Numbered from the stretch's first letter, positions 39,792 to 50,199 are shown. The stretch: DNA of 64,000 bases from an uncultured Candidatus Saccharibacteria bacterium (GCA_964494945.1 CAZBTX010000001.1:3088-67087), one strand, 5' to 3'. Numbers and translations are program-made. Notes: generated by a model not told the origin, from the letters alone.

Positions 39792-39821
39792 TCACTTTAA
39801 TACTGTACAGTATTAAAGTGA
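39792..39821. promoter_or_regulatory. 30-bp perfect palindrome TCACTTTAATACTGTACAGTATTAAAGTGA
   Basis: Read directly. It overlaps the stop codon of the TrpR-like gene 39813-40235. Confidence 0.55.
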
Positions 39822-40235
39822 GCGCCTACGGGGCATATACGCAATCTTGGGAAGTCTGCGGATAGCTTCCTCTAGTTTTTCTAAAGGTTTCGCGAAATTT
39901 CTTAAGATGGTATCAATTTTTTCTTTGCGCTCCAGTTGTTTTATGGCAGCGCGGAATCCCCGTCCGCCTACTTTTAAACGCTCACTCACTGAACCGATCG
40001 TCGGGTCAGACACTTTTAACCTTTGCCGTATATCTAAGTAGGAAAGGCCCCGTTCAAGCATAACTGCAATTAAAAGTCGTTTTCCTAGCATGACTTTTTC
40101 AGTTGTTGAGAGAAGATCATGAAAGAACGACTGTAAATCTTCCCGATTTCGCAAGAGAAAAGATACATCAACCACGCGTTGACTTAGCTCATCAATTTGG
40201 CTATTTGAAAGTTTGTATTTAGATATATGAGGCAT
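39813..40235 (-). CDS. TrpR-related (YerC/YecD-family) DNA-binding protein, paralog of 25853-26266
   Basis: TTEKVMLGKRLLIAVMLERGLSYLDIRQRLKVSDPTI is a Trp-repressor-like HTH. Confidence 0.6.
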   Translation of the reverse strand: MPHISKYKLSNSQIDELSQRVVDVSFLLRNREDLQSFFHDLLSTTEKVMLGKRLLIAVMLERGLSYLDIRQRLKVSDPTIGSVSERLKVGGRGFRAAIKQLERKEKIDTILRNFAKPLEKLEEAIRRLPKIAYMPRRRSL

Positions 40236-40242
40236 ATGCTTT

Positions 40243-40270
40243 TACTTTAATACTGTACAGTATTAAAGTA
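40243..40270. promoter_or_regulatory. 28-bp perfect palindrome TACTTTAATACTGTACAGTATTAAAGTA, 8 bp upstream of the TrpR-like start codon
   Basis: Same 20-bp core TTAATACTGTACAGTATTAA as the sites at 39792 and 40463. Confidence 0.6.
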
Positions 40271-40462
40271 AAGAAAAGGAAGGATTTCTAGTGACCATTC
40301 TAATAATCATGTTGACATATTGGGGTGCAAAACCTTGTATTTTTTGGACGAGTTTATGGCGGTAAATTTAGAAATTGTCCGCCGGAGACGGATCCGCCTT
40401 TGGCGGAAAAATTTTGATCAGCTGCTAGGCGTTGAACTGGCTGTGGTGACTAGAGAAGAGTT

Positions 40463-40494
40463 CTCACTTAAATACTGTACAGTATTTAAGTGAG
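40463..40494. promoter_or_regulatory. 32-bp perfect palindrome CTCACTTAAATACTGTACAGTATTTAAGTGAG
   Basis: Variant of the same operator-like core. It lies between the giant-protein gene stop at 40550 and the TrpR-like promoter. Confidence 0.55.
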
Positions 40495-40549: not shown

Positions 40550-43500
40550 TTAACTGCTTGGCGTGGAACTGGCGGTGGCAGTGGTGGATGAGGCGGTGTC
40601 GGTGGTTGAGGCAGCGTCAGCTCCGACGCTAGCGTTCGGAGCCCCGACCCCTTCGGGCGTCAGGGTTGTTGTCGGCGTTGTGATTGTGGTGTCGGTTGAG
40701 TCGGCAGTCGGCGTGGTGCTGGCCGTGTCTGTCGGCGTGAATGAAGCTATGGGGCTTACGTCCGAGATCGGCGGCAAGCCGTCGCAATTTCCCGAAATGG
40801 TGCTGACGGCGCCACGCTCTATGAATACGCAATATGCCGCTTTGGTGGCGCGATCAAAAAGCGTAATGCCGGTCGGGGCTTCAGTAGAGCCGACGGTTAA
40901 GTGGTCGGTTTCGATATACTTCATCGTCATGCGCCCCGTCTCGTCAATTTTCCAAAGGCCGTTTTGCGAGACGATTTGTCCGACTCCCAAGAGGGCATTG
41001 CCGTTTAAGTTCACATCCCCGTAGAAGTTGACATTCACCTTGCCCGTAGTCTGATCCACCGACCAGCCATTAGTCGCTATTCCCTGTTCGCTATTCGCTG
41101 CTAGCTGGGTCGTTCCTTCATCAAGCTTTGAGTAGCCGAGGTTGATGAAAACCAGGATTTTGCCGGTTTTCACCGTCTGGCCGTCGGGAAGTCCGACTTC
41201 GGCGGTGTTTGAAGTCGGACTTCCAACAGTTGAGTCGTCAAAGTTTTCTAGAGCTATACCCACTGTCACGCCGGATACGGTAGCTTTCATGCCTACTCCT
41301 GCAAGCGAGGAGGAAGTTATCCTGTCGCCTATCTTGATGGGGCCGGATTCGGTGGAAACCTTAACGGGAACGCGGCCGTTCAAAGCAACGGGAAGTTTGT
41401 TTATGGTTTCGGGAAGATTCTTTCCTGCCGAGGTAAAATCAGAGTAATTATTTGAGGTGATGCCAAGGAGGTTTGATTGATAAGCGGTAGTGGAACGCTT
41501 AAGTTCGGAAACATATCCCAAGTGAGGCAGGGTGGAACTTGCGCTTCCCTTCTCGTCGCTGGCATAGGTTTCAATCATTTTACTGCCATCTCCCAAAGCC
41601 ACGATCTCGCCGTATTCAATTCCTTGTTCAACCGGATAAAGCTCGGCATAGTCGGCTCCACCGGAAGTGCAGTCGCCGATGCCGCGCAACGCGTCTGCGG
41701 AAAGTTCAGCGCCGCTATAACACATAGCAACGTTAGAAATTTCGTCATCTAGCATGGCCTGCACGGGGTTGCTAGCTGCATTGGCGTCTACTATAAGCCC
41801 ATTAGTCCAGGTGATGGCGTCACCCGCAGTTCCTGATGGCGCCGTGCGAAGAGTTATATCGGCGCCGCTATAATAGATTTGTTGCGCGGGATTTGTAATC
41901 TTATATCTCCAACTTCCGTCGTAGTATATATTTGCGCCAAGTCCCCCATCAACGCTACCAATATTCGTGAGCGAAAGCGTTCTTCCCGCCGAACTATTCC
42001 CAATAACGAGCGCTGGTATAGTCCATCCTGGATCTGAAGGTACGACACCGAGAAATATTTGCTGGTCGGCATTCGGGAGTTGCAAGGTGGGGCCGGCAGT
42101 GTTCACTGTGAGAATGCCATCAGTATCTATTGTCATCCGATAAGCCGCCGCAGTTATATCTCGAATCTGAAATAACCCTGTATCTTGTACACCTACAATC
42201 CAATCCCTACTTGCTTTATTGGAAAATCGTAAACCTACGCTGTTGGTTGCGTCCTGATTCCGTATATTTAATTGAGGCGTACTCGAGTCCAAACTCGACA
42301 TGCCAGAACCAGAAACAGCCAGCACTCCAAACGGACTCGTCGTCCCGATGCCGACGTTGCCGCTTCCATCAATCCTCATCTTTTCTGCCATAGTTGACGC
42401 TGAATTTTGAGTGAAAAACGTAAGTGATCCTGCCGTGCCTCCGACGGCCTCTCGCATCAATCCTATTAGAGCTGCTGGATTACCATTACCAGCGGCGCGA
42501 AACTTAATTTTAGAGCCAGCCCCGACTACGTTAGAGTCGGACAAAAGGTTCAATTCCGTATTATTGTCGTCATAGTATGAAGCCCCGGTCGCTATAGTCG
42601 AGCTTGAAATGTTGAATGTTGCACTCCCCGTATCGCCAGCCGCACTAGTTCCAACCAAAATCCTGCCGTCGCTTCTTATTCGCATACGCTCAGTCGAAAT
42701 ATTAGCGTTATCGGCACGTGTAAAAAACGCAAGGATTCCACCTCGTTTGGTTGCCGTTGTCCCGCTGAGATTAGAGCTGATTCGCGCCACCTCTTTGGAG
42801 AAAGTTCCTCCAGACTGGGCATCTGCGTGAAAAGAAATAACTCCAACATTATCCGCGTCAGCATCAGCGGTAAGGTTGCCGAGCCGCAGGATTCCGTAAT
42901 CGTTCGTAGCATCAAGCACACTAAAGAACGAATTTCCTGAACCATAAGGACTGGTGGTAATTAGCGATGCATCAGCAGCATCACCACTTCCAAAAATACC
43001 GTTACCCACAACCGATAACTTGGAGCCCGGACTCGTCGTCCCGATGCCGACGTTGCCGTTGGGAAAGTTAACGCTCGAAATCGTCGCCCCACTGCGCTTC
43101 ACATTCAGCCAAGAATTGGCCGTGGCAAGGGAATCATTTAATGCTCGAAAATCAAATTCGCCCGCCGTCAGCATCCCTGGCCCAAAATCCCAAATCTTGT
43201 TGTCAGCGGTGGCATTGGTGTTATTCATCACAATGCCGGTGGTCGCCCCCTGGATTTCCAACTTGCCATCATGCCCCGGCCCGATACGCGCCGTGCCTCC
43301 GATCTGCACATCCGCTGTACCAGAACCAGCCGCTTTCAAGATATGCAAGCCAGAGGCCGGATTCGTTGTCCCGATGCCGACGTTGCCGGATGTTTGCTGA
43401 ACCACGAATTGATTTGTCCCCACAGTAAAGCCGCCCGTAGCTATTGTAGAAGTAGCGGTAGTAGAAGTGGCAGAGAAGTTGTTGGAAACAATTTGGCCGG

Positions 43501-46500
43501 TGACTGAAAGCATGGCATAAGGAGATGTCGTCCCGATGCCGACGTTGGCTCCGCTTCCGAGGATCAACGAGTTGGATTGAGTTACCACGGCGTTGTAACC
43601 GATGGCCGTCGCGTTGGTGAGGTTGGCGGAGGTAAGACCGAAGGTACTATCGTCTTGAGCGCCAATAAACGTATTGGTTGACCCCGTGGTATTGGCACGC
43701 CCGGCGTTTCTGCCGACCGCTACGTTATTGCCGGCGGTGGTATTTAGCAACGAGTATATGCCAATCGTAGTGTTCTGGATGCCGCTGATGTTATTAAACA
43801 GACTATCAAAACCAACAGCCGTATTTTCACTGCCACCGGTGTTTAGCTTCATCGCCTCAAATCCTACGGCGGTATTAGAACTATTAGTATTGCTCGTTAG
43901 TGCCGAGCTCCCTAAAGCCGTGTTATTACTGCCGGAAACATTGGCGGCAAGGGCTCTGTCGCCAACAGCCGTGTTGTCGTCCCCCGTAGTGTTTAAGGTA
44001 AGGGCGTTATAGCCAACGGCGGTGAGCGAGGTGGCCGCAGTGGTGAGCGAGGCAAGGGCATTAGTGCCAACCGCAGTATCTCTCTGGGAGTCCGTGTCCA
44101 TGGTCAAGTTCCCCGCGCTGACCCCAACAAAAGTGTTGTTAGTGCCGAAAGTATGCAGAAGCGTATTTGCAGCCGACTTGATAATGCCTACGGTGGCTGT
44201 GGTGGCCGGTAGCGTGATCGTTCCCGTTGCCGTGATATTAGCAACCGAGGTGATATTTCCGGAAATCAAGGCATTCCCCTGCACCGAGAGGGTTGTTGCC
44301 GGACTCGTCGTCCCGATGCCGACGTTGCCTGAGTTTTTTACTATGAACCTGTTCCCGTCGGTCCCATCATCACTGGATAGCATGAAAAGATCGGATGCTC
44401 CTGCTGATGCACTGACCTCCAAAAGCGCATCTGGATTTATGTCTCCGATGCCGATGTTGCCGCCCTCAAGAACAGAGAACACCTCGTCGTTCGTGCCTGC
44501 ATAAAATCTTGCCCTGTCGGCATCAAATCTTAACGTTGCCACTGTGGTGCCCCCGCCTTCAATACTCCACCCCGTACTTTGAGATATGAAACTGAGGCGT
44601 ATTTGCGCATCAGCGTTTGCTGAATCAAATGCTGTACAACTGGAAACGCCGCAATCAACACTCACTCTGCCACCGACAATATCCAGTTTTTGACTCGGAT
44701 TCGCCGTCCCAATTCCCACATTCCCGGAATTCAGAACCGTGAAGAGCGTCGTGGTCGCTGAAGCCGTTGACGAAGCGATGGTCAAGAGAGGTTGAGTGGA
44801 ATCGGTCGCAAGATTCGCGATGGAAAGTTTTGAATAAGGCGAGGTGGTGCCAATGCCGACGTTGCCAGAGTTTACAATCCGCATCGCCTCGGTGGCTCCG
44901 TTGTTGCCGACTAAGAATTTAATGAAGTCAGTGGTGCCAACGCCCGAGGTGGACTGTAAAGATAGTGAAGAGCCAACTGCGCTCCCGCCGATCAAAAGTG
45001 GGTCAATGATGGAGGTGCCGAAGTAGCCAGTTTTAATGAGATTGGTGGATTTTCCGATATCGGAGCCATTGTTGGCCTCCGGATAAAATCCGGATGAGTT
45101 GTCAATGTTCCAACGAGTGCTGCCCATGTTTTCAGATAACTGGAGAATTCCGCCACCCGCGCCGATGTTTAAGTTCTGCGTGCCTGGGCTTCCCGCTCTC
45201 TCAATGCCCAGAAAGTGACTGCCGTCGCTGTTTCTGGAGTTTATGCTGAACCGAACGTAGTTGGAGGCATTGGTGTAGGTTGAATATATATTCAGGCCCT
45301 GTTCTTGCGTGCCGTTTTGGAGCGCAACGCCTTTGACTAAGTTTCCTCCAGAGCTTGAGAATTGTTCCTTTTGCAAAAGCACATCCGCGGTTCCCGCGCC
45401 GTTGTCCCAGCCGATGATACTTGAGGAAGCCACGGTGAGCGCTTGGCTTGGATTAGAAATCCTAATCCCCACATTCCCGGAAGCATCCACAATGAAGGAG
45501 GTGGCGGTTGAGGAGCCAATGGCGAACGCGGTCTGGGTGGTTCCGGCCGGGGACTGAATGGAGAGCGTGGCAAAGGGCGAAGAAGTGCCAATACCCACTC
45601 TCCCGAAAGGCGAGGATGAAGTGTCCAAAGAAAGCAGAGGATTGGCGGCTGTGGTGCTTGTCGCCAGAGACCAGGCATTGACCGTCAGGTTGGGAATGGT
45701 GCTTGTCGCCCGATTGTTGTAGACAATGTTCCCGGAGTTGATGGAGAAAAGGTCTCCGATGGCATCACCCACATATAAAGAACCCTCCACCAGCAAAGAG
45801 GAGGCGGAAGTGGAGGCCACGGTGACTGAACCGGCCGAGGTCAGGGAATTGACATACACATCCCCCTCGGCATCCACCAGGAACTTGGTAGAGCCATTGA
45901 CCGCCAGACCCAGGAGATTGGTATCGGAGACGGCTGATGCGGGATTGATATACAGGGAAGAGTTGGACACCGCCGCATTGGCCACTCCCGTGGCCCAGGC
46001 GGGAAAGGTGTGGGGCGTTACGGGGACATAGGTAGCCACCACCTGGCCGGAACTGGTGGTGGTGGCCGAGACGGATAGAGTTCCGTTATTAGCCGAGAAC
46101 ACCCCGCCCACCGAGAGCGCCCCGTGGATCTGGGTGTCTCCCGATACTTCAAAGTTGCCGGAGGTGGTGGTGGAGACACCCACCCCCAAGCCCCCGGTGA
46201 GATATGTATGGCCGGATACGGAAAGAAGCTGGGAGGGTGAAGAAGTGCCGATGCCCACTTTATTCCCCCCAAAATCAACCACCAGAGTATCGGTGTCTAT
46301 GGTCAGTCCTCCCGCCATGGTGGAAGTGGAGGTGGTATCGGTCAGGGTCAATTTAGAGGCGGTAACTCCTGCTGTTACCGTGAGCGACCCCGTGCTCACC
46401 ATAAGATCACCGGTTCTCACGGTGGCGCCGTTATAAATGTCCAGGGAGTCCAGCTTGTCTATTCTCTGCGAGACGGTCACCATCTGGAGGGAAGAGCCGG

Positions 46501-47617
46501 CCACGCGGGAAGTATTATTCAAGTCCCCCCGCACGGTGAAGAGGTCATGGGAGAGGGAGGCCAGTTCCACTCTGATTTTGTTGTTTTCCTGCTGAAAGAG
46601 TTGAGAGAGCTCTTGCTTAAGACCGGCGGTGTCCGTTATGACCAGTTGTCTTTCTATGATGGTGGAGGGTTGCTCTTGCTTTTCGGCAGATGCGGCTGGT
46701 TTCTCCGGCTCTTGGCCGTTTAGCGTAAATTCAACTGTTCCCGATGGCAGGGTCAGCGGCTCGCGAATTCTAGAGCCCAAAAGCAAATTGGAGAAGAAAG
46801 GCCGGATGTTCTTGAAGAGTCCCGCGATGTTGCCTTCGCTTTGGATGATACGCGCGACATTCTGCCCGGTGTCTTGGGTGGCGGTGAGGCCGGATTGATA
46901 GAAATTCAGGGAGGCCTCGGTTAGAGAATTTCCCAGCGAATCAATTAGGTTGCTTTTTAAAGCGGCGGGATTTTTAAAATAGCCGCCAAGGCCGGTTAGA
47001 ATGAGATTTGCCGTATCCGGCGTGCCCGAAGTGATATCGGAGATGCTTAGCCGATTTTGGGTTTCAGCCGGTAAAATTTGGCGATGGGATGTTGAAACAG
47101 CTAAAGAACGCAAGTGCTCCCCGGCGTCTTTTGCCAATTGAGCCAGGTCTGCTCGGGCATTGAACCCAATCCCGATAGCCGCCGCCAGCAGAATTAGCGC
47201 GCCAACCAGCTTAAAATTTGATACGTATCTTAATCTATCTAAATATTCAGTTAAATCGTATCTTTTTTCACTTTTAAGAATATGTTCTTTAATTCTATCG
47301 TCATTAAGTATTGCCAGCAGGTTCTCCTTTTTAACAGCCAACAGCGTTTCCGAAGGTCTGTAATATTTTTTAGCTTCTCTTCCGTCACGAGCAGTTAAAA
47401 TTTGGCTCCCAGCCGGTTCCGCGGGCTCAATATAGGCCCCTTTTGCCTTTTTCTTACGCCCGGAGAGGTAATCAAGTAGATCTTTTTCCGCAACGAACCA
47501 GTCGCGACCAACTTTCACTCCCCTTAACGATTTGCGGTTGATAAGAACTCTTAAATAATCCTGGTGAACACCGGAAAATTTTGCCGCCGCTTTGAGTCCG
47601 ATCAATTTTTGCTCCAT
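40550..47617 (-). CDS. Giant 2355-aa surface protein: an N-terminal excisionase/MerR-like HTH, one TM helix, then about 2200 aa of Gly/Thr/Ser/Asn-rich beta-repeat sequence with at least 11 GNVGIGTTSP-type repeats
   Basis: One uninterrupted ORF. N-terminal LKAAAKFSGVHQDYLRVLINRKSLRGVKVGRDWFV. TM segment LVGALILLAAAIGIGF. Recurrent GNVGIGTTSPxxxLxVxG motif. C-terminal Thr/Ser/Ala-rich tail. Confidence 0.75.
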   Translation of the reverse strand: MEQKLIGLKAAAKFSGVHQDYLRVLINRKSLRGVKVGRDWFVAEKDLLDYLSGRKKKAKGAYIEPAEPAGSQILTARDGREAKKYYRPSETLLAVKKENLLAILNDDRIKEHILKSEKRYDLTEYLDRLRYVSNFKLVGALILLAAAIGIGFNARADLAQLAKDAGEHLRSLAVSTSHRQILPAETQNRLSISDITSGTPDTANLILTGLGGYFKNPAALKSNLIDSLGNSLTEASLNFYQSGLTATQDTGQNVARIIQSEGNIAGLFKNIRPFFSNLLLGSRIREPLTLPSGTVEFTLNGQEPEKPAASAEKQEQPSTIIERQLVITDTAGLKQELSQLFQQENNKIRVELASLSHDLFTVRGDLNNTSRVAGSSLQMVTVSQRIDKLDSLDIYNGATVRTGDLMVSTGSLTVTAGVTASKLTLTDTTSTSTMAGGLTIDTDTLVVDFGGNKVGIGTSSPSQLLSVSGHTYLTGGLGVGVSTTTSGNFEVSGDTQIHGALSVGGVFSANNGTLSVSATTTSSGQVVATYVPVTPHTFPAWATGVANAAVSNSSLYINPASAVSDTNLLGLAVNGSTKFLVDAEGDVYVNSLTSAGSVTVASTSASSLLVEGSLYVGDAIGDLFSINSGNIVYNNRATSTIPNLTVNAWSLATSTTAANPLLSLDTSSSPFGRVGIGTSSPFATLSIQSPAGTTQTAFAIGSSTATSFIVDASGNVGIRISNPSQALTVASSSIIGWDNGAGTADVLLQKEQFSSSGGNLVKGVALQNGTQEQGLNIYSTYTNASNYVRFSINSRNSDGSHFLGIERAGSPGTQNLNIGAGGGILQLSENMGSTRWNIDNSSGFYPEANNGSDIGKSTNLIKTGYFGTSIIDPLLIGGSAVGSSLSLQSTSGVGTTDFIKFLVGNNGATEAMRIVNSGNVGIGTTSPYSKLSIANLATDSTQPLLTIASSTASATTTLFTVLNSGNVGIGTANPSQKLDIVGGRVSVDCGVSSCTAFDSANADAQIRLSFISQSTGWSIEGGGTTVATLRFDADRARFYAGTNDEVFSVLEGGNIGIGDINPDALLEVSASAGASDLFMLSSDDGTDGNRFIVKNSGNVGIGTTSPATTLSVQGNALISGNITSVANITATGTITLPATTATVGIIKSAANTLLHTFGTNNTFVGVSAGNLTMDTDSQRDTAVGTNALASLTTAATSLTAVGYNALTLNTTGDDNTAVGDRALAANVSGSNNTALGSSALTSNTNSSNTAVGFEAMKLNTGGSENTAVGFDSLFNNISGIQNTTIGIYSLLNTTAGNNVAVGRNAGRANTTGSTNTFIGAQDDSTFGLTSANLTNATAIGYNAVVTQSNSLILGSGANVGIGTTSPYAMLSVTGQIVSNNFSATSTTATSTIATGGFTVGTNQFVVQQTSGNVGIGTTNPASGLHILKAAGSGTADVQIGGTARIGPGHDGKLEIQGATTGIVMNNTNATADNKIWDFGPGMLTAGEFDFRALNDSLATANSWLNVKRSGATISSVNFPNGNVGIGTTSPGSKLSVVGNGIFGSGDAADASLITTSPYGSGNSFFSVLDATNDYGILRLGNLTADADADNVGVISFHADAQSGGTFSKEVARISSNLSGTTATKRGGILAFFTRADNANISTERMRIRSDGRILVGTSAAGDTGSATFNISSSTIATGASYYDDNNTELNLLSDSNVVGAGSKIKFRAAGNGNPAALIGLMREAVGGTAGSLTFFTQNSASTMAEKMRIDGSGNVGIGTTSPFGVLAVSGSGMSSLDSSTPQLNIRNQDATNSVGLRFSNKASRDWIVGVQDTGLFQIRDITAAAYRMTIDTDGILTVNTAGPTLQLPNADQQIFLGVVPSDPGWTIPALVIGNSSAGRTLSLTNIGSVDGGLGANIYYDGSWRYKITNPAQQIYYSGADITLRTAPSGTAGDAITWTNGLIVDANAASNPVQAMLDDEISNVAMCYSGAELSADALRGIGDCTSGGADYAELYPVEQGIEYGEIVALGDGSKMIETYASDEKGSASSTLPHLGYVSELKRSTTAYQSNLLGITSNNYSDFTSAGKNLPETINKLPVALNGRVPVKVSTESGPIKIGDRITSSSLAGVGMKATVSGVTVGIALENFDDSTVGSPTSNTAEVGLPDGQTVKTGKILVFINLGYSKLDEGTTQLAANSEQGIATNGWSVDQTTGKVNVNFYGDVNLNGNALLGVGQIVSQNGLWKIDETGRMTMKYIETDHLTVGSTEAPTGITLFDRATKAAYCVFIERGAVSTISGNCDGLPPISDVSPIASFTPTDTASTTPTADSTDTTITTPTTTLTPEGVGAPNASVGADAASTTDTASSTTATASSTPSS

Positions 47618-47628
47618 CTAACGCGCAC

Positions 47629-47658
47629 TGATACGTAAACGTATCTTTGATACGCATC
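47629..47658. promoter_or_regulatory. Overlapping palindromes GATACGTAAACGTATC and GATACG-c-ATC in the promoter/5'-UTR of the giant-protein gene
   Basis: Read directly, 12-40 bp upstream (minus strand) of the start codon at 47617. Confidence 0.35.
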
Positions 47659-47954
47659 TTCATCATACATCTGTATGAAAAAATTTTTCTTGTGGATAAG
47701 TTTATTTTTACAAAATTTATTTTTAATAAATTGTTCATAAGTTTAAGTTCTCATTGCTTATATTACCCAATATGATAATGGGATTAACCGGCAAGATAAC
47801 TCGTCATACTTATTTATTAGAAAGTCATTTGATTACTCATTAAAACAAAAGAGTTTTTCAATGCATTGCTATAGCATTAAATTGAAAAAACGCTTTATTC
47901 TAATAAGCGCGATTGAGTAAGCCGTATTGGCGGCTTAAATTAGCTTAAGTCACC

Positions 47955-48545
47955 TTATCCTCTTAAACTGAAGAATTTTTTAGCCGCATTTTCCTCCGTG
48001 CCCAGGGACCTTACTTCAAGGCAGTTGACTCCCCCATCAAGGCCGAAAACCTCGCAAATGAATTCAATTTCATCTTCGCAGGGCAGGAAATGCGCGAAGA
48101 CACTTTTTTGGAGTTTATAAAAATTCATGTCATTTAATTTTTTGGACAGGGCGTCGCGCGCCTGTTTTTTATTTTCAGGAATATCAAACATCACTACGCG
48201 CCAGAGGCCGTCCCAGCGCGGTGTATTTTTTAATTTGAGATTCTCTAGATTATATTGGCGCAACCTTTTCTCTCCGGTTGCCGTTAGACGCAACAATGTT
48301 TTGTTGCCGGAATTTTCATGTTCCAAAAACTTTTGCCGGCGCAGGCGTTCAATCGCCACACGAATGCTGTTTTTTCGTTTTCTGCCAATGCCAATTTTTT
48401 CCAGCCGCGGGAGAAAAAGATCACTGATGGAAGCGTCTCTTCGCGAAGAAAACGCGGCGGGGCGGTCGCGCAAAATAGAAAGTATTTCTTTGGCGATAGT
48501 CCCCTTTTTTAAATTTTCCCCGCGCTCAACAGCGATTTTGGGCAT
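47955..48545 (-). CDS. PaaX-like architecture: N-terminal winged helix fused to a C-terminal Cas2/VapD-like ferredoxin-fold domain. Putative regulator, not CRISPR-associated.
   Basis: C-terminal WRVVMFDIPENKKQARDALSKKLNDMNFYKLQKSVFAHF matches the Cas2-like pattern (hhhh-FDI...R..L...G-F..LQ-SVF). The N-terminal 100 aa is basic and HTH-like. No cas1 or repeat array in the window. Confidence 0.4.
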   Translation of the reverse strand: MPKIAVERGENLKKGTIAKEILSILRDRPAAFSSRRDASISDLFLPRLEKIGIGRKRKNSIRVAIERLRRQKFLEHENSGNKTLLRLTATGEKRLRQYNLENLKLKNTPRWDGLWRVVMFDIPENKKQARDALSKKLNDMNFYKLQKSVFAHFLPCEDEIEFICEVFGLDGGVNCLEVRSLGTEENAAKKFFSLRG

Positions 48546-49759: not shown

Positions 49760-49820
49760 AAGTTAGACGAATGTCTAATTAACCTAATTATTCTAATCAA
49801 TACTCAATGTTTGAATGTCT
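49760..49820. repeat. CTAAT-family element AGTTAGACGAATGTCTAATTAACCTAATTATTCTAATCAA...TGTCTAATGAC, left flank of the IVS-protein gene
   Basis: Shares CTAATTAACCTAATT(TCTAATT)ATTCTAATCAA with 18843-19020 and, inverted, with 50200-50243. Confidence 0.55.
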
Positions 49821-50199
49821 AATGACCAATTTTCTTCTTCCTAAGGTTTCTGGTAATACTGTTAAATATCAAATTCAATTCCTTTGCTTCTTGCCAAAGT
49901 TTTCTAGCTTCTTCTCTCGGTTCGGGAACAGCAATTGCTGTCATTCGTAGCCAATGCTTTGTTTCTCTCGCTTCTTTTTTACAAATGCCAATTTTGTGTT
50001 TGAAGTCCCGGCCCGATTCGGCGTCATCGGCTTCGCAATAATTAGCTCCCACACTTGTCCCAGATTTTACTAACTGGTTAATGATCGGCAGAGTTATCGG
50101 ATTCATTGGTAATTTCTTGGCAAATTTAATGATATCTTCACCAAATTTAGCCGTTCTTTCCTCAAGATCATATTTATTTTTGACCGTATCATTGGTCAT
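49819..50199 (-). CDS. Four-helix-bundle protein of the 23S-rRNA-intervening-sequence-protein family
   Basis: DIIKFAKKLP...LVKSGTSVGANYCEADDAESGRDFKHKIGICKKEARETKHWL is the TIGR02436-type pattern. Confidence 0.7.
   Translation of the reverse strand: MTNDTVKNKYDLEERTAKFGEDIIKFAKKLPMNPITLPIINQLVKSGTSVGANYCEADDAESGRDFKHKIGICKKEARETKHWLRMTAIAVPEPREEARKLWQEAKELNLIFNSITRNLRKKKIGH

Follow-up and report, generated by a model that had tools for sequence, protein, structure and literature searches.

The stretch of DNA analysed here, called the window, comprises 64,000 nucleotides (nt) of an uncultured Candidatus Saccharibacteria bacterium (CAZBTX010000001.1:3088-67087). On its minus strand, at 40550..47617, lies a single uninterrupted open reading frame (ORF) of 2355 residues starting with ATG, exactly as a preliminary description of this DNA had it. 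The product, hereafter the fibre protein, combines a small N-terminal winged helix-turn-helix (wHTH) domain, one transmembrane (TM) segment and an ectodomain of ~2200 residues related to phage tail fibres, an arrangement conserved in Patescibacteria (the candidate phyla radiation, CPR). We propose that it is a tail-fibre-like adhesin for contact with other cells, anchored with its N-terminus inside the CPR cell (N-in) and carrying a cytoplasmic foot that would bind DNA; we give this reading a probability of about 60%, while we hold the structural statements on the protein with high confidence.

Gly, Ser and Thr each account for 11.4% of the residues, Ala for 9.9% and Asn for 7.2%, with six Cys only, in agreement with the Gly/Thr/Ser/Asn-rich ectodomain first noticed. 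The layout is as follows, all coordinates being those of the window.

47450..47617 (-): residues 1-56, wHTH of the HTH_17 family (Pfam, AlphaFold2, Foldseek)
47216..47449 (-): residues 57-134, basic linker, presumably cytoplasmic, with ENLLxxLN, KRY and RYVS motifs directly before the TM helix
47153..47215 (-): residues 135-155, single TM helix, predicted N-in signal anchor (Kyte-Doolittle)
46631..47152 (-): residues 156-329, variable low-complexity juxtamembrane segment
46418..46630 (-): residues 330-400, conserved neck, a predicted helix followed by NNTSRVAGSSLQMVTVSQRIDKL (AlphaFold2, profile matches)
41663..46417 (-): residues 401-1985, fibre shaft with 11 GNVGIGTTSPxxxL motifs and tail-fibre/tail-spike-like modules
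43538..44140 (-): residues 1160-1360, run of NTAVG repeats of ~16-17 residues each, weakly YadA-head/tail-spike-like
41108..41662 (-): residues 1986-2170, beta domain of G2/pre-neck-appendage type, like an intramolecular chaperone (IMC), beginning at ADYAELY (D1989)
40748..41107 (-): residues 2171-2290, small C-terminal beta domain with two conserved Cys, pattern WxIDExG...LTVG...GITLxDxxT...C...G.C
40550..40747 (-): residues 2291-2355, Thr/Ser/Ala/Pro-rich tail and stop codon (composition)

From the winged helix to the fibre tip

The foot of the molecule is a member of HTH_17 and its fold matches the DNA-binding domains of Xis and MerR proteins, so that the excisionase/MerR-type HTH announced by the preliminary description is borne out by family score, predicted fold and structural matches alike. 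Residues 9-54 match Pfam HTH_17 (PF12728, gathering score 27 bits) with 30.8 bits and an E-value of 3.6e-7 when the isolated N-terminus (residues 1-160) is searched, and with 25.5 bits, slightly below the gathering score, on the whole 2355-residue protein. The AlphaFold2 (AF2) model of residues 1-470, built on 7 sequences, is confident for residues 1-55 only (predicted local distance difference test, pLDDT, 76-86), where it takes the topology beta-alpha-alpha-beta-beta(wing)-alpha, with strands at 5-7, 33-36 and 39-43 and helices at 8-15, 19-27 and 44-57. Foldseek superposes this domain on Pukovnik Xis (4j2n; TMt 0.72, root-mean-square deviation, rmsd, 1.3 Å) and on BldC (6ama/6amk; TMt 0.76-0.80); RdfS, the RacA-DNA complex (5i44), TraN, the Par protein of pSK1, Tn916 Xis, GlnR, SoxR and BmrR are matched as well. 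Over ~50 residues these superpositions reach TMt 0.6-0.8 and rmsd 1.3-2.8 Å, with probabilities of 0.9-1.0 (0.97-1.0 for 4j2n, 6ama/6amk, 8dgl, 5i44 and 1y6u).

An alignment of eight sequences (A4) leaves S15, G16, Q19, Y21-R28, K35 and D39-F41 invariant in the recognition helix and wing, and the sequence Q(D/N)YLRVLINR of the recognition helix is unchanged across orthologues. HTH_17 alone emerged from the Pfam scan of the fibre protein, which contains no OmpR/PhoB-type winged helix (Trans_reg_C), and a six-frame search of the window revealed no second copy of the HTH module. By analogy with its structural neighbours, the cytoplasmic foot probably binds DNA. BldC and Xis bind DNA cooperatively as multimers, BldC head-to-tail, and RacA is a MerR-type wHTH protein tethering chromosomal DNA to a membrane-associated site through its coupling with DivIVA. 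The fibre protein shares with Xis (Pukovnik, Tn916), RdfS, BldC, RacA and pSK1 Par the fold and size of the wHTH; these proteins are however small and soluble, or coupled to the membrane by a partner, as RacA is by DivIVA, whereas here one polypeptide carries the wHTH, a TM helix and a giant ectodomain.

In a Kyte-Doolittle profile (19-residue windows) hydropathy exceeds 1.5 solely at residues 131-141, FKLVGALILLAAAIGIGFNAR, with a maximum of 2.01: the single TM span proposed at the outset is indeed the sole hydrophobic peak in 2355 residues. Ahead of it, residues 1-134 count 29 K/R against 19 D/E, and E98, N99, N105, Y131 and V132 are invariant in A4, in short linker motifs. None of 153 relatives has a hydrophobic segment before its HTH, and the residues K+R flanking the TM segment number 2.8 on its N side against 1.6 on its C side, the N side being the richer in 53 of 70 proteins. 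As nothing hydrophobic and no signal peptide precedes the HTH and as the charge bias follows the positive-inside rule, we infer that the HTH is cytoplasmic, as had been supposed. Hydropathy and charge bias support a type-II (N-in) single-pass protein whose helix would act as a signal anchor.

Two other interpretations of this region were rejected. A cleavable signal peptide (A-R-A↓D after the TM segment) does not hold, the AxA motif being missing in orthologues, and neither does an extended signal peptide of the KxYKxGKxW type (TIGR03715), for which residues 1-160 gave no NCBIfam match. The K-V-G-R-D-W stretch (residues 35-40) is the wing of the folded wHTH, ~95 residues ahead of the TM helix. 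Beyond the membrane, residues 156-329 are poorly conserved among orthologues and modelled with low confidence; this segment is possibly a cell-wall spacer, and probably spans the envelope.

The neck follows. AF2 draws a helix at residues 330-360, in the model that is confident only for the HTH, and the neck falls inside a segment (residues 271-410) that is 46% identical to the relative P0061. Profile positions 295-395 are besides matched at the same place in the distant giants P0068, P0083, P0091 and P0134. We regard the neck (residues 330-400) as a likely trimerisation stalk.

In the shaft, the recurring GNVGIGTTSPxxxL unit, for which at least 11 copies had been claimed, is counted 11 times with a loose pattern (at residues 451, 672, 714, 918, 965, 1052, 1097, 1356, 1411, 1521 and 1753); a stricter pattern, used for the test against chance, recovers 10 of them, against none in any of 2000 shuffled sequences. 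The motifs are irregularly spaced and are not tandem repeats. Two PHROG families match the shaft, the tail fibre phrog_9942 at residues 1582-1891 (E 1.9e-23) and the tail spike phrog_4636 at residues 1244-1355 (E 7.9e-20). The sole match of the fibre protein among PDB sequences (phmmer) is 8ol4, with an E-value of 8.3e-5 over residues 1083-1127, exactly on one GNVGIGTT motif. This structure is a MAT (mosaic adhesive trimer) fibre of Bdellovibrio, involved in prey recognition; MAT fibres sit on the predator surface and bind prey glycans, and the motif V-G-G/N-pi-x-x-P-x-x-x-L is the capping loop of trimeric beta-helical fibres, found likewise in phage fibres terminated by S74 (PMC10769870). The PHROG and MAT matches support both the likeness to phage tail fibres and the "attachment device" that the preliminary description had suggested.

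Repeats of the form N[TNS][AT][VLI]G lie at residues 1215, 1232, 1248, 1265 and 1282, and Pfam YadA_head reaches 15.2 bits (E 0.028) in the fibre protein, below its cut-off of 25. The YadA_anchor beta-barrel is absent from the Pfam scan and the C-terminus is a Thr/Ser-rich tail, so that by the features tested the protein is not a trimeric autotransporter.

A side observation concerns inteins. The giant relatives P0068, P0091, P0097, P0134 and, three times over, P0108 contain them, an NYN domain being embedded in some, and the insertion always falls on one point of the repeated capping-loop module (…LLS(I/V)AGH↓CVTGDT…VAHN↓TYLTGGLG…). The equivalent site of the fibre protein, residues 464-480 (46178-46228), is empty and reads continuously LLSVSGH-TYLTGGLG. 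The homing of inteins to a repeated motif within a gene for a surface fibre is unusual.

The shaft is followed by a G2/pre-neck-appendage-type, IMC-like domain (residues 1986-2170). Homologues of the last 370 residues are found in Colwellbacteria, Sungbacteria, Liptonbacteria, Uhrbacteria and Paceibacterota. Seven of 56 such homologues match Pfam Peptidase_G2 (PF11962; best E 3e-5), and the profile of the family matches the autochaperone of phi29 gp12 (3gqh) with an E-value of 5e-4, at its first residue, DFAEYFE there and ADYAELY here (residues 1988-1994). The AF2 model of the C-terminal region, built on 56 sequences, has a mean pLDDT of 80.9, mostly above 90 in the G2-like domain and 86-95 in the terminal beta domain. 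Compared by Foldseek with the viral models of BFVD, it gives a best E-value of 1.4e-9 and matches a 'Preneck appendage protein' (E 1.9e-8, TMt 0.60), then phage tail proteins, collagen-repeat fibres and proteins of algal giant viruses; compared with the PDB it gives weak matches only, to capsid decoration/cement proteins of phages (E at least 0.05). The S74 chaperone suggested for this end is absent, and a G2/pre-neck-appendage-like domain stands there instead: the fibre protein has no PF13884 match and no [ST]DxRxK motif, the mark of S74 domains being an SDxxxK catalytic motif. S74 is present in 5 of the 56 C-terminal relatives.

The small beta domain that comes next (residues 2171-2290) is 63% identical to that of P0061, and also ends P0083, P0088, P0043 and P0044, there after an S74 domain. 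The last 65 residues comprise 22 Thr, 11 Ala, 11 Ser and 6 Pro, a composition which confirms the Thr/Ser/Ala-rich tail. Several relatives (P0003, P0004, P0022, P0041, P0044 and others) carry extra modules beyond the G2-like and terminal beta domains; in Patescibacteria these tip modules include immunoglobulin (Ig)-like DUF5011, HYR, H-type lectin and a MopE-like metal-binding motif. This mosaic diversification of the tip resembles that reported for the MAT fibres of Bdellovibrio.

Relatives and integrity of the frame

A profile of residues 1-406 and two homologues was compared with 1.84 billion representative proteins. It gave 805 matches at E <=1e-3 and 9 at <=1e-30, these nine including proteins with the whole N-terminal arrangement. 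Full-length relatives come from this representative search, a general homologue search having returned fragments of at most 610 residues only, and the counts of architectures below refer to the best 150 of the 805 matches. Of the 75 relatives of at least 300 residues, 69 have one TM-like segment after the HTH(s), as do all 22 of at least 1000, and GxVGIG motifs are present in 20 of these 22. The relatives have 1-3 tandem copies of HTH_17 at their extreme N-terminus, and the TM-like segment comes a median of 54 residues later. The giants P0145 and P0202 carry the same HTH-HTH-TM module with quite different ectodomains.

All relatives bearing a taxon name are Patescibacteria (Sungbacteria, Azambacteria or 'Patescibacteria group'). 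Their database entries say no more than 'hypothetical', 'helix-turn-helix domain-containing' or 'tail fiber domain-containing', or else 'NYN domain-containing', the last because of the inteins.

Segment identities were taken against the orthologue P0061 (4341 residues), which shares with the fibre protein the N-terminal arrangement and the C-terminal G2-like and terminal domains. Identity is highest in the HTH (69%), then in the C-terminal beta domain (63%); it is 46% both in the stalk segment (residues 271-410, neck included) and in the first shaft module (residues 411-640), 39% in the G2-like domain and 25-35% in the rest of the shaft. Judged from these identities, it is the two ends of the molecule that are under the strongest constraint. 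The survey of homologues thus finds the N-terminal HTH conserved, as the best kept segment, and recurring across Patescibacteria.

By tblastn with residues 1-405, HTH, TM segment and stalk were found in a single continuous frame at 13 loci, 2 from genomes, both labelled Ca. Saccharibacteria, and 11 from metagenomes. P0061, P0063 (1805 residues) and P0058 are, besides, continuous full-length relatives. These two observations rule out a two-gene fusion or a frameshift artefact, the possibility that the preliminary description had itself raised.

Gene neighbourhood and conserved 5' motifs

On one strand the gene order is hrcA-grpE-dnaK-orf307-(23S IVP)-dnaJ-PaaX-like-fibre. The conserved and housekeeping nature of these neighbours, with no phage genes close by, led us to reject a prophage origin. 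The 5' region of the fibre gene (337 nt) was compared in an alignment of 7 non-redundant orthologous 5' regions (A7); with the 3' side, the features are:

47955..48545 (-): gene of a wHTH + PaaX_M/Cas2-like regulator, between dnaJ and the fibre gene (Pfam PaaX_M, E 1.5e-18)
47691..47699 (-): TTATCCACA, ~75 nt upstream of the ATG, all nine positions invariant in A7
47629..47647 (-): imperfect palindrome AAGATACG-N4-CRTATCA (AAGATACG-yTAn-CrTATCA), candidate operator, invariant in A7
39813-40235 (-): TrpR/YerC-like gene (Pfam Trp_repressor, E 4e-13)
39798-39815, 40248-40265 and 40470-40487: perfect palindrome of core TAATACTGTACAGTATTA, three copies extending to 24-35 bp, none expected by chance

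The palindrome ahead of the fibre gene, already pointed out in the preliminary description, is real: 0.07 matches to GATACGTAAACGTATC (47630-47645) are expected by chance. A single copy is present in the 64-kb window, and each of the 12 orthologous loci that reach the 5' region likewise has just one, at the matching place. The palindrome directly follows a -10-like TATCAT/TATCAA and ends 12 nt before the ATG here, 8-12 nt across the seven aligned orthologues. No Shine-Dalgarno sequence is visible in the 5' region of the gene. In three of the seven sequences of A7 (L004, L011 and L012) the right arm is CATATC and not CGTATC, with no compensating change of the left arm (C.A mismatch). For this reason an RNA hairpin was rejected as main explanation, and the element seems conserved as a DNA sequence and not as an RNA stem.

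The nonamer TTATCCACA is unique in the window. Eleven of the 13 loci (L002, L004-L013) have it once, in the corresponding place, and nowhere else in the locus flanks, L001 carrying TTTTCCACA instead. The nonamer is identical to the DnaA-box consensus. Its invariance across deeply diverged orthologues might indicate a control of the fibre gene by DnaA or the cell cycle. The adjacent PaaX-like regulator, the HTH of the fibre protein itself and DnaA are the candidate binders of these 5' sites.

The PaaX-like gene is directly upstream of the fibre gene in 13 of the 13 orthologous loci with readable upstream sequence (48-58% identity); dnaJ is also reached in 12 of the 13, and dnaK-orf307 are seen where the loci extend far enough. 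The PaaX-like protein represents an uncharacterised type of regulator that appears tied to the fibre locus. Between orf307 and dnaJ, inside an otherwise conserved heat-shock gene cluster, there is a variable slot, occupied at 49819-50199 by a 23S-rRNA-IVP gene (four-helix bundle) and in L001 (2043-2435) by a PD-(D/E)XK_3 gene.

At the 3' side, the TrpR-like gene with large palindromes that had been described is present, together with three 18-bp palindrome cores. One copy lies right after the fibre stop codon, another shortly ahead of the start of the TrpR/YerC-like gene, and the third overlaps the stop of that gene, which is thus bracketed by candidate operators of its own or by terminator-like hairpins. 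The orthologous loci stop short of the 3' end of the fibre gene, and the TrpR-like gene is seen beside a fibre gene in the window alone; in the context of P0004, the C-terminal matches are contig-end fragments, with no TrpR-like neighbour. A further observation is a 28-nt near-copy (24/28 identical) of the last codons and stop of the fibre gene, at ~40418-40447 versus 40550-40580, that is ~110 nt downstream and past the first palindrome. It looks like the relic of an insertion or of a replacement of the 3' end, i.e. of the tip.

A proposed anchored contact fibre and its alternatives

The assembly of such a protein can be pictured as follows. The nascent wHTH, which no signal peptide precedes, would stay in the cytoplasm while the lone helix inserts as a signal anchor; the variable residues 156-329 and the helical neck would then lead the chain across the envelope. 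Trimer formation probably starts from the neck (residues 330-400) and the C-terminal IMC-like domain, on the model of phage fibres and MAT proteins. The ~1600-residue shaft would be made of beta-helical modules closed by the GNVGIGTTSPxxxL capping loops and would measure ~100 nm, a length scaled from the ~550 Å fibre of Bdellovibrio Bd3182, which has 922 residues (PMC10769870). It would end in the G2/IMC-like folding domain and the conserved small beta domain, the distal part recognising and holding the surface of another cell, the host of a supposed episymbiont, by analogy with phage and MAT fibres. On the same analogy, adhesion to another cell is the probable function. On the inner side, the foot of the trimer would present three MerR/Xis-type wHTHs, or as many as nine where a relative has them in tandem, and would fasten the fibre base, perhaps along with the fibre gene, to the membrane; the two invariant 5' motifs are the first candidate targets.

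Some observations weigh against this picture. DNA binding, trimerisation and adhesion are all deduced from homology, and the episymbiont lifestyle of the organism is a supposition. As to the foot, the NCBIfam excisionase model TIGR01764 ('excise') scores 23.1 bits on the same residues for a cut-off of 28.8, the HTH profile finds no meaningful relative among PDB sequences, and the Foldseek E-values are weak (0.09-0.8), which we explain by the confident part being 55 residues inside a 470-residue model of mostly low confidence. The palindrome would also suit a dimeric regulator, such as the PaaX-like neighbour, better than a monomeric Xis-type HTH. At the other end, residues 1986-2170 of the fibre protein have by themselves no Pfam match at E-values up to 5, and if the G2-like domain cleaved itself as in gp12, ahead of the D-x-A-E-Y motif once the trimer is assembled, the C-terminal beta domain would be removed and lost as a binding tip.

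The strongest competitor sees in the fibre protein a ToxR-like, contact-sensing one-component regulator: binding or tension of the fibre would alter the clustering of the HTHs, their affinity for DNA or their proteolytic release, and switch transcription, including that of its own promoter. A DNA-binding domain, one TM segment and an extracytoplasmic ligand-binding part are the layout of membrane-bound one-component regulators; the HTH is the most conserved segment, its recognition helix is invariant and two 5' DNA motifs are found solely at the fibre gene. The same HTH-TM module is however borne by very different ectodomains, in 1-3 copies and in hundreds of clusters, which makes a generic anchor likelier than as many sensors. 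Besides, a ~1600-residue shaft is ill suited to passing on conformational signals, the neighbourhood has no conserved gene for a protease or partner, and a dedicated soluble PaaX-like regulator, which could explain the palindrome, adjoins the gene in every locus. One-component transmembrane signalling, which the preliminary description had suggested alongside attachment, thus remains a hypothesis, the palindromic operator being equally attributable to the upstream PaaX/Cas2-like regulator. We hold the contact sensor to be an unlikely possibility.

The comparison with known regulators goes in both directions. ToxR, CadC, TcpP and RodZ also have an N-terminal cytoplasmic HTH, one TM segment and an extracytoplasmic domain, a topology that is predicted for the fibre protein. 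ToxR and CadC however have an OmpR-type winged helix and small periplasmic sensors, RodZ has an XRE-type HTH, and none has a fibre of ~2200 residues.

A bolder and speculative form of the anchored-adhesin reading, which we consider rather improbable, makes the protein a contact-to-chromosome device. The Xis/MerR-type feet of the trimer would bind their own 5' sites, TTATCCACA and/or the GATACG palindrome, perhaps in cis, while the nascent N-terminus appears beside its gene; the locus would be tethered to the membrane for the co-translational export of a giant protein, and transcription, or a control linked to DnaA and the cell cycle, would follow fibre load or host contact with neither kinase nor second messenger. 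HTH_17-TM would then be a general CPR solution, used on hundreds of surface proteins.

Another alternative concerns the outer part, which could be a structural fibre of the envelope (coat or S-layer-like fuzz, serving spacing or protection) and not an adhesin of host contact. No ligand is identified, the ectodomain is poor in Cys and rich in Gly/Ser/Thr with a Thr-rich tail, and the gene keeps a single chromosomal position beside housekeeping genes, all of which would fit. But every recognisable module is of the kind found in receptor-binding fibres (phage tail fibre and spike, MAT, pre-neck appendage), the relatives swap their C-terminal domains (S74, Ig-like DUF5011, H-type lectin, HYR) in the pattern of receptor-binding proteins, and the C-terminal domain is far better kept than the shaft. 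These points make a purely structural fibre doubtful.

Doubt may also bear on the foot: the wHTH might not bind DNA at all and be a protein-protein or topogenic module, docking the base of the fibre or fixing the N-in orientation. The precedent is RodZ, whose XRE-type HTH at the membrane binds MreB, and a module used generically over many ectodomains, with no sequence relative in the PDB and a score under the TIGR01764 cut-off, could be understood in this manner. The close structural matches are nevertheless all DNA-binding domains, many solved on DNA, and the polar or basic surface positions Q19, R23, N27, R28 and K35 of the recognition helix and wing are invariant; a pure topogenic signal, for its part, needs neither a folded domain conserved at 69% nor tandem copies. 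A foot that does not bind DNA thus appears improbable. Lastly, an artefact (frameshift or misassembly fusion) or a mobile origin (tail-fibre gene of a prophage or tailocin) can practically be dismissed in spite of the strong similarity to phage tail fibres and the 28-nt relic of the 3' end, given that 13 independent loci keep the N-terminal arrangement in a single frame, that several full-length relatives of different assemblies continue it through the fibre, that the flanks (hrcA-grpE-dnaK-dnaJ and the TrpR-like gene) are devoid of phage genes, and that virion fibres do not attach by an N-terminal HTH and a TM helix.

Returning to the anchored adhesin, its nearest counterparts are the MAT fibres of Bdellovibrio bacteriovorus (PMC10769870; 8ol4). 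Both are long surface fibres related to tail fibres, joined by the capping-loop motif and the direct sequence match reported above, and both families have a conserved proximal end and a diversified C-terminal end, with S74 or non-S74 termini within the family. MAT proteins start with a signal peptide and a conserved beta-rich N-domain of ~130 residues that binds a surface element (PMC10769870), whereas the fibre protein has wHTH, TM helix and helical neck; neither the signal peptide nor the beta-rich N-domain of MAT was found here, the region after the TM segment being predicted helical or disordered (judged without direct alignment to the MAT N-domain). The bearer is moreover a CPR bacterium and not a diderm predator, and the fibre protein is 2-4 times longer. 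With phage tail fibres and spikes and with phi29 gp12 (3gqh) it shares the PHROG matches of the shaft and, by profile and fold, a likeness of the C-terminal domain to the G2-type autochaperone, with an equivalent D-x-A-E-Y/L start; it differs from them by the chromosomal housekeeping context of the gene and by an N-terminus that is a membrane anchor and not a baseplate or neck adaptor.

To our knowledge, MyRF is the sole described case in which a DNA-binding domain and a membrane anchor occur together with a trimerising module derived from tail fibres, its module being the phage-derived S74/ICA. In this eukaryotic protein the DNA-binding and ICA domains are both cytoplasmic, and the factor is set free by self-cleavage. 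The fibre protein resembles it by this combination, but has HTH and fibre on either side of its TM helix, another DNA-binding fold and no S74. The study of the MAT fibres reports the capping-loop motif in MyRF too (PMC10769870). In the literature on Patescibacteria/CPR, on adhesins of Saccharibacteria and on HTH_17 + TM proteins, we found no description of an HTH_17-TM-fibre architecture. A transposon-sequencing study of Saccharibacteria deals with other adhesins (VCBS, dockerin and FN3 domains) and leaves this family unmentioned, and work on CPR host contact has so far concerned type IV pili and few adhesins (PMC10633639).

Little is known of the ways in which the ultrasmall CPR/Patescibacteria locate their host cells, hold on to them and react to them. 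The family described here, in which a phage-type receptor-binding fibre is joined through a single helix to a cytoplasmic domain of DNA-binding type, recurs in these bacteria. If the foot does bind DNA, these would be the first adhesins wired straight to the chromosome, and they would offer a tractable entry to contact-dependent regulation, the domains and a candidate operator being defined and the 5' sites conserved. Even on a more conservative reading, the family constitutes a catalogue of candidate determinants of host specificity, with swappable tips, in the CPR.

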